Source: Pseudomonadota bacterium (lineage in GTDB: Bacteria; Desulfobacterota; DSM-4660; Desulfatiglandales; Desulfatiglandaceae). Taken from it: a DNA stretch of 37,731 nucleotides. The position numbers and the translations under genes are program-made. Position 1 is the first letter of the stretch; each line of letters begins with the position of its first letter. The notes below the pieces were generated by a model that worked only from the letters and a program-made list of their open reading frames with translations, did not search any database and was not told the origin of the DNA. Shown in pieces: positions 8,910 through 22,048 of this stretch. The DNA lies in contig JBDRPB010000014.1 in NCBI GenBank assembly GCA_043809485.1, positions 1-37,731 of the forward strand, read 5' to 3'.

Positions 8910-9112
8910 TTTATATCAGAATTCAAGGCAGTTGCAAATATTAGCTAAAAAATCTTGATAATAAAAGAGCGCAAGGGCTCAAATTGTGAAGACACGCTTC
9001 TGCCTTTGCCGGGGTGAATTGAACTCTCTGCCTGGCTAAGCTCTGGCTCAAACCTACGGGACGGATAGAGTTCCGGACCACTGGAACCAGATAGATGGAA
9101 ATAAATAACACC

Positions 9113-9736
9113 ATGAACAGAAAAACCTTGTTCTTCGGTTTTGGCGCTATTGTTGTCGGACTCCTTTTTGTAACATGGGGAAATTGTCTTGCCCAGGAGC
9201 CAAAAAATATCCTGAGCATTGAAGCATATGATATGCTCAACACTGTACCAGACACTTACCTCATTGATGTGAGAACAAGGGCTGAATACCAATTTGTGGG
9301 CCATCCTATCAGTGCATATCTGTTTCCTTACGTTTTTATGACCCAAGAGTTTGGTAAAAAGGATGAGCAGTACGGGTATCGATTCAACGTGAAAAACAAA
9401 GACTTTATTTCAGAGATAGGCAAAATCTTTAAGAAGACTGATAATCTGCTCATCATCTCCCGTGACGGCACGCGAAGTGCTGCCGCTGCCAAGGATCTTC
9501 TGGATGCTGGCTTTAGAAATACAATGAACGTGGAAGATGGCTTTGAAGGATCGGAATTCCCCAGCTTCACAGACAGCAATAAGCACAAATTTTATCGGCA
9601 GCTTGCAAAAAGGAATAAAATTTATGGCTTTGACCACAGACGGCACTATGGTTGGCAGTGGTGGGGGCTTCCCTGGACCTACAAGATTGACACAAAATAT
9701 ATTTATCCCCCGGATCTGAAGTTGTCCAAGCAATAG
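9113..9736 (+). CDS. Exported rhodanese-homology domain protein lacking the catalytic Cys
   Basis: Signal peptide MNRKTLFFGFGAIVVGLLFVTWGNCLAQE. Rhodanese core YLIDVRTRAEYQFVGH. The active-site loop reads IISRDGTRSAAAAKDL, where rhodaneses have C-R-x-G-x-R-S. ATG 9095 is an alternative start. Confidence 0.7.
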   Translation: MNRKTLFFGFGAIVVGLLFVTWGNCLAQEPKNILSIEAYDMLNTVPDTYLIDVRTRAEYQFVGHPISAYLFPYVFMTQEFGKKDEQYGYRFNVKNKDFISEIGKIFKKTDNLLIISRDGTRSAAAAKDLLDAGFRNTMNVEDGFEGSEFPSFTDSNKHKFYRQLAKRNKIYGFDHRRHYGWQWWGLPWTYKIDTKYIYPPDLKLSKQ

Positions 9737-9931
9737 ATGGCTTGGCTGCGGCACTTTTCTTCCCTTATATCGTTCTCCCGCATTTCCCTTGATACCGCCA
9801 ACCCAGAGTAAAACCTGGCGAAAGCACCTGAAACCAATGTAGTAATTGTTATTCTGCTGTCCTTCCTGTTGACAAAGTGACTTGGCGGTAGTAGGTTTAT
9901 TGGAAATTATTTTGCGGAAAGGAGATTTAGG

Positions 9932-10255
9932 ATGTCTGATGTATTGCAGGTGACAGATGATACCTTTGAAGAAGAAATCATGAAATCCGATATCCCGGCC
10001 ATGGTTGATTTTTGGGCGGAATGGTGCGGGCCATGCAAAATGGTATCGCCCGTGGTAGAGGAATTAGCAAAAGAGTATGAAGGCAAGATAAAAATTGCAA
10101 GCATGGATGTGGACGGGAATCGTCAAACTCCAGGGAAATTCGGGATCAGGAACATCCCGACACTCATTCTCTTCAAAGGAGGAGAAGTAGCTCAGACGAT
10201 CGTTGGTGCCCATCCCAAGAGTCACCTTGATGAAGAACTGAAAAAACTTCTCTAA
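9932..10255 (+). CDS. trxA: Thioredoxin
   Basis: 107 aa, WAEWCGPCK active site, AAGGAG SD. Confidence 0.95.
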   Translation: MSDVLQVTDDTFEEEIMKSDIPAMVDFWAEWCGPCKMVSPVVEELAKEYEGKIKIASMDVDGNRQTPGKFGIRNIPTLILFKGGEVAQTIVGAHPKSHLDEELKKLL

Positions 10256-10337: not shown

Positions 10338-11267
10338 ATGCAGCGTGTTAATATGGAAGATCTGATTATAATAGGGGCAGGGCCTGCCGGGCTTACCGCA
10401 GGTCTTTATGCTGCAAGGGCACGCCTTAAAACCCTCCTGTTAGAGAAACTTTCTCCAGGGGGCCAAGTCCTGATGACCGATTGGGTGGAAAATTACCCAG
10501 GCTTTCCTGATGGAATCTCAGGGTTTGACCTCGTGGACAAAATGAGGCGCCAGGCCGAAAAGTTCGACCTGGTGATCGAGAATCAAGAGGTTTCCCGGCT
10601 TGAACTCTCCCCGGAAAAAAAGGTTGTGGTGACCGATAAGGGGAACCTGGAGACCAGGGCATTAATCCTGACAAGCGGTGCGACCCCCCGGAAATTGGGG
10701 ATTGAAGGTGAAGAACTTTTGACAGGCAAAGGTGTTTCCTACTGTGCCACCTGTGACGGTCCCTTTTACAGGGATCAAGAAGTGGCACTTATTGGAGGCG
10801 GAGACACGGCCGTAGAGGAAGCGATCTTTTTGACACGTTTTGCGGCAAAGGTTCATCTGATACACCGCAGAGATGAGCTGAGGGCCACCAAGTTGCTTCG
10901 AGAACGGGTTATGGCGCTGGATCAAGTAAACATTGTGTGGGATACCGTACCGACGCGTATTGTGGGTGATACCGAGGTGAAAGGGGTGGATCTAAAAAAC
11001 GTCAAAACCGGAAAAACATCCCACCTGCCTGTCCAGGGCGTGTTTGTCTTTGTCGGCTACATACCCAACACCGAACTGGTGAAAGGCCAATTGGAGCTGG
11101 ATAAGTTGGGCTTCGTGGTGACCAACAACGATATGCAAACCTCTGTACCCGGCGTTTTTGCCGCAGGGGATATCCGATCCAAGATACTGCGACAGATAGC
11201 TACGGCTGTAGGTGAAGGGGCCACAGCCGTTTTTGCCGTTGAAAGATACCTTGAGAGCCTTAAGTAA
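10338..11267 (+). CDS. trxB: Thioredoxin-disulfide reductase
   Basis: IIGAGPAGLTAG FAD motif, redox CATCDG, GGGDTAVEEA NADPH motif, GVFAAGD. The start could instead be ATG 10353. Confidence 0.9.
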   Translation: MQRVNMEDLIIIGAGPAGLTAGLYAARARLKTLLLEKLSPGGQVLMTDWVENYPGFPDGISGFDLVDKMRRQAEKFDLVIENQEVSRLELSPEKKVVVTDKGNLETRALILTSGATPRKLGIEGEELLTGKGVSYCATCDGPFYRDQEVALIGGGDTAVEEAIFLTRFAAKVHLIHRRDELRATKLLRERVMALDQVNIVWDTVPTRIVGDTEVKGVDLKNVKTGKTSHLPVQGVFVFVGYIPNTELVKGQLELDKLGFVVTNNDMQTSVPGVFAAGDIRSKILRQIATAVGEGATAVFAVERYLESLK

Positions 11268-18332: not shown

Positions 18333-19502
18333 TCATTTTCCTTTGTTTAACCCTATCACCCAGTAAAAGATCTCCCTCAGGGGGCGATTGGTTTTCAATG
18401 CGACCTCACGACAGGCCTCATATTCCGGTAGAAAAAAGGGGGATCCGTCTCTTTCGAGGACCTTCTTGACCTTGATCTTACCCCAGGGGCTCTCAACTTC
18501 TGCCACAGAGCGTTGCAGTACCATACGCTGGGTGTATCGGAATCGAATGCCCAGGGTGCTGCTCTCCCTGAAAAAGATCTCCATCAACATATCCTTTTGA
18601 TCAGGACGGCCCATTACCTGGATCTGGATCCCAGGTCGATTTTTTTTCATCTGAACAGGACAGAAAACCACATCCAAAGCCCCGGCATCAAACAGCCGGT
18701 CCATAAGAAATCCCAGCCACTCAGGGCTTGTGTCGTCTATATTTGCCTCAAGTATAACAACGGTATCTACCTGGCCCTCAGTCTGCATATTCCCGATGAG
18801 AATCCGAACCAGGTTGGGCCTATCTGACAGATCTCTTTTTCCCACCCCATATCCGATCTTCTCTACCACCATGGGAGGCATGGGTCCAAAAGAAGTGGCA
18901 AGCTCTTTCACCAGGGCAGCTCCGGTTGGGGTCACCATTTCATGATGCGTCCCCGAATCATAGACCGGAACGCCCTCAAGGAGGGCAGTGGTGGCAGGTG
19001 CTGGAATCGGTATTCTGCCATGGGCAGTCTCTACAAAGCCAGAACCAAGAGGGAGGGGAGACACAAAAAGCGAAGTGACTCCTAACCGTTCAAGACCGTA
19101 CACAGTTCCGACTATATCAATGATCGAATCCACGGCACCAACCTCGTGGAAATGAACATCCTCTGGCGGCTTGTTATGGATTTTTCCTTCCACACTGGCA
19201 AGCTCTTCAAATATTCCGATACTTTTGTCCTTAACCCCACTGCTCAAGCTTCCCTTCCGGATGATATTCCTGATGACTTCCAGGTTCCTCGGAACCTGTT
19301 CCTGCCCTTCCGTTTTGACCACAAACCGCGTCCCGAAGATCTGGCTTCGCGCCTCCCGCTTCATTTCCAGACGAAAACTATCGAACGGGAGGGCCTGAAT
19401 TTTTTGATCCAAGTCTTCAAAGGAAAGGCCCGCATCCAGCAGGGCACCTATAAACATATCCCCGCTAATACCAGAGAAACAGTCGAGGTAGGCTATTTTC
19501 AT
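18333..19502 (-). CDS. larC: Nickel insertion protein LarC (DUF111; nickel-pincer cofactor biosynthesis)
   Basis: N-terminus MKIAYLDCFSGISGDMFIGALLDAG and HFHEVGAVDSIIDIVG are signature LarC motifs. Start moved to ATG 19502. Confidence 0.85.
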   Translation of the reverse strand: MKIAYLDCFSGISGDMFIGALLDAGLSFEDLDQKIQALPFDSFRLEMKREARSQIFGTRFVVKTEGQEQVPRNLEVIRNIIRKGSLSSGVKDKSIGIFEELASVEGKIHNKPPEDVHFHEVGAVDSIIDIVGTVYGLERLGVTSLFVSPLPLGSGFVETAHGRIPIPAPATTALLEGVPVYDSGTHHEMVTPTGAALVKELATSFGPMPPMVVEKIGYGVGKRDLSDRPNLVRILIGNMQTEGQVDTVVILEANIDDTSPEWLGFLMDRLFDAGALDVVFCPVQMKKNRPGIQIQVMGRPDQKDMLMEIFFRESSTLGIRFRYTQRMVLQRSVAEVESPWGKIKVKKVLERDGSPFFLPEYEACREVALKTNRPLREIFYWVIGLNKGK

Positions 19503-19639
19503 GTAACGGCTCCCTGTAAAAAACAGAAACCACAAAAAACCTTGCCGAACACGCAAGGCATTCTATCAGAACATTTTGATTTTTTTAACAAAACATCCTT
19601 TTAATGTCAATAAAGGAAAAGCCTGGCATGTCCTTATCA

Positions 19640-19667: not shown

Positions 19668-19696
19668 CATAATAACCAGTTTTTTCGAGGTTTTCA

Positions 19697-21064
19697 ATGA
19701 GCCTGTTGTGTGGACTTAAGCGAACATTTTTTCTTGTGTCCCTGACAAACTTTGCGCTCTTTGCCCCATCAAGCATTGTTAGCAGTGAAGATGTGGATAG
19801 GAAACCATCTATCCGTGTAATCTATGGAGGAAGTCTGTTCGGTAGACTCAAACCGTGCGGCTGACATGAGTTACAGGCGGGGGGGCTTTCTCGCCAGAAA
19901 ACAGTGACAGATCGATTAATTGCCGAAGCGGGTCGGGAAAATACCATCGTTATCAATACGGGAGATAACCTTTTCCAAACCGGCGAACTGGAACTGGAAC
20001 ATAAGAAAGCCGAAGTGATATTTAAAGCCTTGGACAGGATAGGGATCGATTTTGTCGGCCTGGGTGAGCAGGAGTTCATTTTCGGAGTTCCGTTGATAGG
20101 CAATCTGACAAAGAACTCGCAGGTGCATTTGGGGTGTGCTAACGTAAAAGATATCCGCCGCGTGTCACCATATTTTGTTCCCTACTTACGGTTGGATAAG
20201 GGGATGAAACAGGTGTTGATTTCTTCTGTGATAGACCCACAGGTATTGAAATCGACCCATGAGAAAATAGCCTTCACCGATCCGGTTACGGCCCTAAAAA
20301 GGATAAAGAAAACCATCAGCCATGACATTTTCATCGTTATCTGCCATGCGGATGCTGTCAGCGCGGAAAAATGGCTACCCCAGGTAAGCGGCATTGACCT
20401 GGTGATTCTGGGGCGCCAACCTGGCGTTAGTGCGAAAAAACTGGAAATAAACGGGGCAATGTTAGCGTTTAACAATGACCGGGGCCAGTTCGTCTCCCAT
20501 GTCGATCTTGTGCCAAAGGATGGACGCTATGCTGTTTCTGGACCGCATAACACAGGGCTACAGGCAAAAACAATAGCAGAAGACAGGTCTGTTGCTAAGC
20601 TGATCGAGGAATATGAGGTCTGGAGCAGGGAATATCATTACGCAAAGAGCAAAAATCAGCATTTGGCCAAGGCACCGTCTGATATTGAAAACATCTATGT
20701 TGGTAAAGACCGTTGTATGGAATGTCATGAAGAAACAGTCGTTTCCTGGGCAAAAACCGCGCATGCAAGGGCCCTGGATTCGTTGATAAGAAAGGGGAAA
20801 GAATATGATCCCCAATGCCTTCCATGCCATGTAACCGGCATGAATGACAAGTCCCATGGCGGTGGGTTCATATCCCTTAATCTAACACCTCACATGGTGA
20901 ATGTTCAGTGTGAGCAGTGCCATGGTCCTGGCGGACTGCATGCCCAAGACCCGGAAAATGTGTCTGCCCGGTTGTCTGGAAAGCAAACTTGCCTGAGTTG
21001 TCATACCAAGGACACAGACCCCGGCTTTTCCTACCAGAAAAAACAAAATACAGGCATACACTGA
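19697..21064 (+). CDS. Exported tetrahaem c-type cytochrome fused to a degenerate metallophosphatase/5'-nucleotidase-like domain; in-frame TGA at 19862-19864 read as candidate selenocysteine (Cys-Gly-Sec)
   Basis: The track ORF (19904-21064) has four CxxCH motifs (20714, 20816, 20909, 20990) and no signal peptide. The same frame is open upstream except for one TGA. ATG 19697 with GAGG 6 nt upstream gives MSLLCGLKRTFFLVSLTNFALFAPSSIVSSEDVDRKPSIRVIYGGSLFGRLKPCG-U-HELQAGGLSRQKTVTDRLIAEAG... A hairpin lies downstream of the TGA. Confidence 0.6.
19876..19895 (+). promoter_or_regulatory. SECIS-like stem-loop starting 11 nt after the in-frame TGA
   Basis: Sequence ggcgggggggctttctcgcc folds into an 8-bp stem (5 G-C/C-G plus 3 G-U pairs) with a GGCU loop. 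The loop G residues lie about 22 nt after the U of UGA, inside the window usually described for bacterial SECIS elements. Confidence 0.45.
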
Positions 21065-21097: not shown

Positions 21098-22048
21098 TCA
21101 CAGTGAATTGAATGGCTCGGCCTGTTGAAAATCGGGCAAAAAGGGAGAGCGTGCGGTCTGGAGCCTTGGCCCTTTTTCTGGGAACTGAACAAAAAGATTT
21201 TCAAAGCCAAGTTCCATGGCATGGGAGTAACCTTTATCAAACTCTTCGTGGGAAAGAAGCCGGTTTAAAGCCTCATCTTTTTGCTGTGCTATTGGTTGGT
21301 ACTGTGACATAAGGCTTAGGGGCAGGCCCTTGCCAAACTCTACAAAAAGGCTGGTCAAGGCGTCCATGGAATTCCCCACATTCCCGGGCAGAATCAGATG
21401 CCTGACAAGAACACCTTTTTTTGCAATCTCTGACCCTTTCAAGAATGTGTCTAAAAACCCTTTCTGTTTGACCATCTCCCCGATCGCCTCAAGCGCCACT
21501 TCAGGGTAATCCCGGCATTTTGAGAGTTTCACGGCCAAAGATGACTCCGAATATTTGAAGTCGGGAAGGTAGATGTCAGCGTAATCTTCAGCGGCTTTTA
21601 ACATTTCTACGGACTGATATCCGGAGAGATTATAAAGCACTGGAAGATCAAAATTTTCTTTACGCAACAGAGCAACAAGGCGGAAAACATGCGGGAAGAA
21701 ATGGTCCGGAGTCACAAAATTGATATTGTGGACACGATGATTCCGGATCATATCTTCTATCTTTTCGAGCAATTCACCTGTACTTATTTCTACGCCCAGG
21801 CCTTTGTGCGAAATCTGATAATTCTGGCAGAAAGAACATCTAAGAGAGCAGCCCGTAAAAAAAATTGTTCCTGAACCATTCGCGCCCGTGATAGGAGGTT
21901 CCTCCCCGAAATGGGGCCCCACGTAGGCCACCCTTAGCTGATCCGTTTCTCCGCAAAACCCTGAATGACCCGCTCCATCGTCCATGACCCTGTTCACGCC
22001 GCAGTAACGGGGACAAAGACGGCAGTTTTCATAAGATTCCCTATACAC
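21098..22048 (-). CDS. Radical SAM protein, PflX-like (COG1313-type homologue of pyruvate formate-lyase activases)
   Basis: N-terminal Cys cluster CRLCPRYCGVNR...GFCGE plus the radical-SAM motif CSLRCSFCQNYQIS. The GTG start overlaps the stop of the upstream gene by 1 nt (TAGTG). Confidence 0.8.
   Translation of the reverse strand: MYRESYENCRLCPRYCGVNRVMDDGAGHSGFCGETDQLRVAYVGPHFGEEPPITGANGSGTIFFTGCSLRCSFCQNYQISHKGLGVEISTGELLEKIEDMIRNHRVHNINFVTPDHFFPHVFRLVALLRKENFDLPVLYNLSGYQSVEMLKAAEDYADIYLPDFKYSESSLAVKLSKCRDYPEVALEAIGEMVKQKGFLDTFLKGSEIAKKGVLVRHLILPGNVGNSMDALTSLFVEFGKGLPLSLMSQYQPIAQQKDEALNRLLSHEEFDKGYSHAMELGFENLFVQFPEKGPRLQTARSPFLPDFQQAEPFNSL

Follow-up and report, generated by a model that had tools for sequence, protein, structure and literature searches.

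We wanted to know whether a TGA lying inside a cytochrome gene of a Desulfobacterota genome ends that gene or is read as selenocysteine (Sec). The locus lies in a stretch of 37,731 nucleotides (contig JBDRPB010000014.1 of assembly GCA_043809485.1), hereafter the window, in which gene callers place a tetrahaem protein that starts with GTG at 19904. An earlier note, made from the letters of the window, had proposed that the TGA joins a signal peptide to this protein and that the product is a candidate new selenoprotein with a Cys-Gly-Sec motif. Starting from the ATG at 19697, 55 sense codons lead to the TGA at 19862-19864 (open reading frame (ORF) 19697..19864). Past this triplet the same frame stays open until the TGA at 21062-21064, the first TGA being the sole internal stop of the translation. 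The predicted product therefore reads MSLLCGLKRTFFLVSLTNFALFAPSSIVSSED...GRLKPCG-[UGA]-HELQAGGLSRQKTVTDRL... in a single frame, with GRLKPCG-TGA-HELQAGGLSR around the motif (KPCG-TGA at 19853-19864). The positions of ATG, TGA and GTG, the 55 codons, the four CxxCH motifs and the GAGG element 6 nucleotides upstream of the ATG, all named in the earlier note, were found as described. The N-terminus runs from Lys8/Arg9 through a hydrophobic stretch, FFLVSLTNFALFA, to a region of small residues, SSIVSS, an order that is signal-peptide-like by eye. Taken together, the comparisons given below make it very probable that 19697-21064 is one Sec-containing gene.

The read-through product was used as the query in a search of 5.8 billion proteins, and DNA was then taken for the clusters found and for further metagenome and genome loci. 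Fourteen close protein clusters were retrieved (34-98% identity), each covering just 77-85% of the query because all of them had been called from starts downstream of the TGA (P0001-P0014, without exception). The metagenome scan added close relatives alone. At the DNA level, the TGA, the in-frame coding region upstream of it and the hairpin described below were kept in all 22 loci of the window's clade, which come from independent assemblies and span the same 34-98% identity. Each of the 22 carries a basic-then-hydrophobic N-terminus, then (P/L)CG-TGA, then Q[AS]GGL[SA]RQ in frame, and the stretch [IL]R[VIL][IV]..G....G.[LV]..CG stands directly before the TGA. Since the same signal peptide, CG-TGA and frame recur at every clade locus, a chance arrangement was dismissed, and the comparison indicates that the arrangement is more than coincidence. 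The joining of the two parts in one frame was thus borne out by the sequence and by the clade. The earlier note had spoken of a textbook signal peptide of the general secretion pathway; its likeness to a signal peptide stood, with equivalent N-termini upstream of the TGA in the homologues, and we grade it as signal-peptide-like only. One clade member, on the JGI metagenome contig Ga0180009_10000879, is 98% identical to the window gene and shows no DNA difference around the UGA and the hairpin; it probably belongs to the same population as the window.

These loci also bear on whether the gene is simply broken. A pseudogene, or a sequencing or assembly error, would need a TGC or TGT of an ordinary Cys gene to have become TGA, for which one transition or transversion suffices, and Cys forms are common in the wider family. 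However, such a change would have to recur in the 22 independent clade assemblies, down to 34% protein identity, with coding conserved on both sides of it and a covarying hairpin after it. We give this explanation next to no weight, and the conservation of the TGA by itself appears to refute it effectively.

To see the Cys/Sec column in the wider family, one genome per species was scanned, which gave 285 relatives; the 80 best were retained. A set of 70 sequences was composed of scan relatives, clade loci and the window, each bearing the motif together with two or more CxxCH motifs. Its taxa include Scalindua, Eisenbacteria, Fibrobacteraceae, Acidobacteriota, Planctomycetota, Nitrospirota and others. 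In this set (window included), the column is TGA in 30 sequences and TGC or TGT in 40. The full-length distant homologues P0016 and P0017 carry PCGC and PCDC, respectively, and C54 and C56(U) are invariant in alignment A1. The PCGC relatives that the earlier note had mentioned therefore exist, and homologues align through the motif with either Cys or an in-frame TGA, the pattern for which it had proposed to look. These alignments indicate that the UGA forms a Cys/Sec pair with PCGC-type homologues. On a neighbour-joining tree, Sec and Cys clades were interleaved; the window clade was monophyletic, all Sec, and sister of the main (core) Sec clade. The NCBI-sourced proteins P0018 and P0020 begin MGGLPRR, right after the motif, which suggests that more unrecognised Sec forms exist.

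A hairpin resembling a selenocysteine insertion sequence (SECIS) follows the TGA (Table 1). By the criteria reportedly set out by Zhang and Gladyshev in 2005, a bacterial SECIS is a stem-loop that follows closely on the UGA and whose apical loop contains a G and lies about 16-37 nucleotides away. The window hairpin falls within this range, its stem beginning 11 nucleotides and its GGCU loop 19 nucleotides past the UGA. The clade loci comprise 13 distinct sequences over the 48 nucleotides starting at the TGA. Among these, 94.2% of the stem cells are paired, a value reached by 0/500 shuffles, and pairing falls to 39-65% when the stem partners are slid by 1-3 columns. The pair 19882/19889 is unbroken in all 13, as G-U (5), C-G (4), A-U (3) or U-G (1). 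One partner is the third, synonymous position of a Gly codon and the other is the first position of the Ser/Ala codon after it, a coupling that the peptide alone would not explain. As a control, the hairpin columns are 96% paired in the clade against 52% in 31 Cys forms of identical spacing, and two of these controls, L044 and L071, also carry the QAGGL peptide. Clade-wide conservation and the covarying hairpin together argue that the TGA behaves as a Sec codon, as the earlier note had proposed.

The Sec forms of the core family have their own, different hairpin about 8-10 nucleotides further 3', with pairing of 95% where Cys forms show 52%. It occupies columns 26-40 after the UGA (for example L009:3055-3108 and L015:3055-3108), often reads CUGGCCC-GGA-GGGCCAG, and is built of Leu-Ala-Arg-Arg-Ala codons. 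As the hairpin positions of the core and of the window clade differ, the SECIS would therefore have moved between the two sister clades while staying inside one conserved peptide region. Two Cys forms with TGC, L027:3061-3114 and L069:2241-2294, also show a strong hairpin in the core-family register; these may be fossil SECIS elements left after a recent switch from Sec to Cys.

We then asked to which family the protein belongs. With U replaced by C, its best NCBIfam match was NF041198, "UshA-like (seleno)protein" (UshA_like_PCGU; E 4e-69, 233.6 bits). The model matches in two stretches, residues 291-447 aligning to positions 359-519 of the 519-position profile; on the distant homologue P0017 it matches in its N-terminal half (residues 12-256 against profile 4-268). 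The P-C-G-[U/C] motif of this family and its two-domain architecture, an UshA-like part and a CxxCH-rich part, are both present in the window protein. So are the COG0737/UshA homology and the CxU motif with Cys homologues by which the literature recognises an UshA-like CxU family. The equivalog cut-off of NF041198, 275 bits, is not reached by the window protein. The clade scores 218-234 bits (L001 218.3, L002 226.0) against 275-296 for the core (L008, L009 and L010 283-296; L013 274.9), and a Scalindua Cys form gives 282 bits. These comparisons place the protein outside the strict NF041198 equivalog and within the broader, literature-defined UshA-like CxU family, as a sister clade. In passages of the 2008 Global Ocean Sampling study and of two reviews from 2022 and 2026, "UshA-like, COG0737, CxU" is listed among the selenoprotein families (PMC2398784, PMC9312934, PMC13188914). 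In such a passage Zhang and Gladyshev (2008; PMC2398784) counted the UshA-like family as previously characterised, and one in the 2026 review cites NF041198. The existence of this model and of this literature since 2008 speaks against the idea that the protein is a new selenoprotein with an architecture outside the classical families, and that part of the earlier proposal was given up. What the locus reveals is a gap in gene calling and no novel kind of selenoprotein: the clade is new and systematically mis-annotated, and the family is known yet uncharacterised.

The public annotations imply another reading, in which the locus makes two products, a secreted peptide of 55 residues ending at the TGA and a protein of 386 residues from GTG 19904, the latter beginning MTDRLIAEAG in public cluster P0001. 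Every public annotation splits the locus in this way, and in L001-L004, L101-L103 and L105 small ORFs have been annotated upstream. Attachment of c-type haem needs export, as part of cytochrome c maturation, and export of the window protein is expected for this reason, whereas the 386-residue product would lack an export signal despite its four CxxCH motifs. Moreover, HELQAGGLSRQKT, the peptide of the 13 codons that separate the TGA from the GTG, can be aligned both to the conserved GG-x-x-R-x-x-T motif of 5'-nucleotidases and to Cys-form homologues with an uninterrupted frame, and NF041198 spans both parts. Two products are thus highly improbable, and the GTG start is an artefact of the UGA taken for a stop.

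The annotation of the whole clade suffers from the same artefact. Its members are called as a truncated, signal-less "hypothetical" cytochrome in 14 clusters, one of which alone holds 139 member sequences, and they are mis-called because the curated NF041198 cut-off just misses the clade. With a lower cut-off or an additional sub-model, annotation would regain about 70 N-terminal residues, among them the export signal and the probable active site. One truncated clade member is named "hypothetical protein JRJ56_01270" at NCBI, and P0018-P0020 are likewise N-terminally truncated calls. In two loci of the core family, a haem-less CG[C/U] paralogue lies directly upstream of the haem-bearing gene (L013:1741-2724, TGC at 1900; L058:1535-2722, TGA at 1859). 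Both match the N-terminal half only of NF041198 (141.5 and 125.5 bits, respectively), and the window gene is without such a partner.

Several results weigh against Sec insertion at this site or against the assignment made here. The 70-nucleotide hairpin region folds no better than shuffles (z = -0.54), and Sec and Cys forms are not separated by the minimum free energies of 54-nucleotide segments (-17.9 and -17.3 kcal/mol, respectively; p = 0.36). As whole-segment energies do not discriminate, the argument for a SECIS depends on pairing in a particular register and on a small number of covarying pairs. These covarying pairs overlap the conserved peptide QAGGLSRQ, and most stem pairs are invariant. 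No RNA family was matched when the whole window was scanned with Rfam at the gathering threshold. Within the 37.7-kb window, none of selA, selB, selD and tRNA-Sec was found (31 ORFs by Pfam; no tRNA by ARAGORN), and by Pfam the 31 ORFs are housekeeping genes, without sel genes or a conserved partner. Gene neighbourhoods were not conserved among the homologous loci compared, so that genomic context gives no clue to function. Literature searches found no characterised function for the UshA-like CxU tetrahaem architecture, and the shortfall against the equivalog cut-off given above belongs here as well.

The lack of Sec machinery in the window and of a SECIS-type Rfam match would also agree with a UGA read as something other than Sec, either by near-cognate insertion of Trp or Cys or under a reassigned code. 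However, more genes in the window end with TGA as an ordinary stop than with any other codon (13 of the 31, this one among them), and a reassigned genetic code was excluded on this ground. A Cys at the column in homologues and a register-specific hairpin in TGA forms only are signatures of Sec, and NCBIfam curates the family as one of selenoproteins. The host also belongs to a lineage rich in Sec: the window RecA is 97-100% identical to RecA of metagenome-assembled genomes of Desulfobacterales/Desulfobacteraceae, which places the window among them, and this lineage is among the most selenoprotein-rich bacteria (PMC13326102; PMC9312934). Such a host counts as support for Sec insertion, not as proof. 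Altogether, a non-Sec reading of the UGA seems improbable, if somewhat less so than a broken gene or two products. A scan of the window for in-frame TGAs joining long frames gave no other convincing selenoprotein gene. The other candidates either overlapped opposite-strand genes or were ordinary stops and were rejected; so was a minus-strand TGA at 9412, a low-quality translation opposite a rhodanese gene.

The domains of the protein were then compared with those of known structure. Pfam detects the cytochrome c554-type domain alone, and the four haem motifs, CMECH 340-344, CLPCH 374-378, CEQCH 405-409 and CLSCH 432-436, lie within the last 120 residues. In NCBIfam, UshA (E 4.1e-7), SoxB (1.8e-11) and PRK09419 (3.8e-14) matched, as did, weakly, cyclic-nucleotide phosphodiesterases, and 5'-nucleotidases of the PDB matched at E 8e-5 to 6e-3. 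The full motif set of dimetal phosphoesterases (DxH, GD, GNH[ED], H, GH) was not found in the window protein. Aligned with 7d0v and 1oi8, GD is kept, GNHE reads GEQE, and GH (GGH) reads GR. The PDB alignments start after the DxH position, which presumably reads GG (YGG) when set by eye against the UshA motif. The ligands left are the GD Asp and the CHAD His. The invariant residues of the N-terminal domain in alignment A1 are C54, C56(U), G62, G63, R66, N149 and D210. On this comparison, most dimetal phosphoesterase ligands appear to be lost and canonical phosphoester hydrolysis is unlikely.

The best explanation overall, in our view a very likely one, is that 19697-21064 is a single gene for an exported UshA-like Cys-x-Sec selenoprotein. 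In the model that follows, SelB and tRNA-Sec would insert selenocysteine at the UGA at 19862-19864 under the direction of the hairpin at 19876-19895 within the coding sequence, a step suggested by the comparative data. The signal peptide would send the protein to the periplasm, where four c-type haems would be attached to the c554-like C-terminal domain. The N-terminal part would keep a 5'-nucleotidase/SoxB fold with its dimetal ligands mostly gone and the Cys54-Gly-Sec56 pair as its most conserved feature. As the ligands are lost while C54 and C56(U) are invariant, we propose the conversion of the former dimetal site into a Cys/Sec redox site fed by the haems. The haems would exchange electrons with a Cys-Sec selenenylsulfide or selenol centre, and the substrate of this centre in the periplasm may be a compound of sulfur or selenium, a peroxide or a disulfide. 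By analogy, the homology to SoxB hints at sulfur chemistry. A periplasmic haem-wired Cys/Sec redox enzyme is, on the sequence comparisons, the likeliest model. Two other proteins of 560-633 residues, P0015 and P0022, carry a homologous c554-like tetrahaem module (34-38% identity) fused to Redoxin/AhpC-TSA/Thioredoxin_8 domains, fusions that are consistent with a theme of haem-to-thiol or haem-to-selenol wiring.

The main mechanistic alternative accepts the insertion of Sec and makes Cys54 and Sec56 metal ligands in a remnant phosphoesterase site instead of a selenenylsulfide couple. Hydrogenases and formate dehydrogenases offer examples of Sec as a ligand of Ni or Mo/W, the fold is that of a metalloenzyme, the GD Asp and the CHAD His are retained in the window protein, and a LarC-type nickel-insertion gene lies divergently upstream (18333-19556). 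However, the ligands that remain differ from member to member of the family, GD being changed to GN in L002 and L004 and CHAD and GH being variable, and the LarC neighbour is absent at the other loci compared. We consider metal ligation unlikely, though with more in its favour than the alternatives to Sec insertion. Under the redox model, a more specific proposal is that the window clade is a functionally distinct, as yet unannotated subfamily of sulfate-reducing Desulfobacterales with a relocated SECIS, which would transfer electrons from haem to selenocysteine on a metal-less phosphoesterase scaffold and act on a sulfur, selenium or peroxide substrate; this we put forward tentatively, as doubtful.

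If true, a phosphatase fold that has lost its metals and carries a haem-wired Cys/Sec site would make an interesting enzyme, one for electron transfer from haem to selenocysteine that is without characterised precedent. The question belongs to a known family and was not first raised by the window locus. The UshA-like CxU family is widespread, in anammox Scalindua, Acidobacteriota, Planctomycetota, Fibrobacteraceae and Desulfobacterota, and is uncharacterised as a family.

The coordinates of the features are collected in Table 1. The earlier note had also pointed to a promoter-like element, TTGACT-N16-TATAGA; both hexamers (19640-45 and 19662-67) and the 16-nucleotide spacer are present, and the sigma-70 scanner did not report the element on the + strand because the second (-10) hexamer is without the final T, so that the promoter claim is graded weak. 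The selenoprotein gene is a lone + strand gene, flanked by the LarC-type gene and by a radical-SAM gene (21098-22048), both on the - strand. The radical-SAM neighbour is found also at the 70%-identical locus L105 and not in more distant loci. Elsewhere in the window, a rhodanese-domain gene (9095-9736) lies just upstream of a thioredoxin gene (9930-10250, WCGPC), which is followed by a thioredoxin-reductase-like Pyr_redox_2 gene (trxB, 10338-11267); thioredoxin and reductase are both ordinary Cys forms.

Table 1. Features of the putative selenoprotein locus (positions in the window).
Feature	Position	Strand	Details and source
Shine-Dalgarno-like element GAGG	19687..19690	+	6 nucleotides upstream of ATG 19697; read from sequence
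Full gene, UshA-like Cys-x-Sec tetrahaem (seleno)protein	19697..21064	+	455 codons and stop; codon 56 (TGA) as predicted selenocysteine
Signal-peptide-like N-terminus MSLLCGLKRTFFLVSLTNFALFAPSSIVSS	19697..19786	+	sequence, by eye; equivalents in homologues
UshA/5'-nucleotidase/SoxB-like (calcineurin-fold) domain, degenerate dimetal site	19805..20626	+	NCBIfam NF041198, SoxB, UshA; PDB 7d0v, 1oi8
CxU motif	19856..19864	+	Cys54 (TGC)-Gly55 (GGC)-Sec56 (TGA 19862-19864); sequence
SECIS-like hairpin	19876..19895	+	8-bp stem 19876-19883/19888-19895, loop GGCU 19884-19887; RNAfold, RNAalifold
GTG start of gene callers	19904..19906	+	ORF list; product of 386 residues, identical to public cluster P0001
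Cytochrome c554-like tetrahaem domain	20696..21037	+	Pfam PF13435 E 2.4e-13; PDB 1bvb E 9.5e-9
CxxCH motifs	20714-20728, 20816-20830, 20909-20923, 20990-21004	+	sequence
True stop codon TGA	21062..21064	+	sequence, translation

Among known systems, NF041198 is the closest. It shares with the window protein PCG[U/C] after a signal peptide, an UshA/SoxB-like N-terminus, a C-terminal tetrahaem part and the coexistence of Sec and Cys forms. Its core differs in a hairpin about 8-10 nucleotides further from the UGA and of another sequence, and in the motif after Sec, x-GG-[LV]-A-R-R instead of the Q[AS]GGL[SA]RQ of the window clade. The UshA-like CxU family of the literature is alike in its CxU motif, in its homology to 5'-nucleotidases of the COG0737 type and in having been predicted by the logic of Cys/Sec pairs; the passages on it in these papers give no function and do not mention a haem domain (PMC2398784, PMC9312934, PMC13188914). 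NF049981, "UshA-like (seleno)protein family 2", matches weakly over 90 N-terminal residues (E 1.3e-6), but its 28 bits lie far under the cut-off of 140, and that family has about 262 residues, a CxxU motif (PMC13188914) and no haem domain. With E. coli UshA, 5'-nucleotidases and SoxB, the window protein shares the GG-x-x-R and GD motifs and the overall domain order, whereas it has GEQE for GNHE, GR for GH, and an added CxU motif and tetrahaem domain. Cytochrome c554 of Nitrosomonas europaea (PDB 1bvb/1ft5; PF13435) has a homologous domain with four CxxCH motifs, but it is a free electron carrier, in contrast to the C-terminal module of the window protein, which is fused to an enzyme-like domain. 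Finally, the ExtKL multihaem c-type cytochrome (seleno)protein NF040886 also combines c-type haems with Sec, but it is a separate family that matches the haem domain marginally (E 0.0015, 17 bits).

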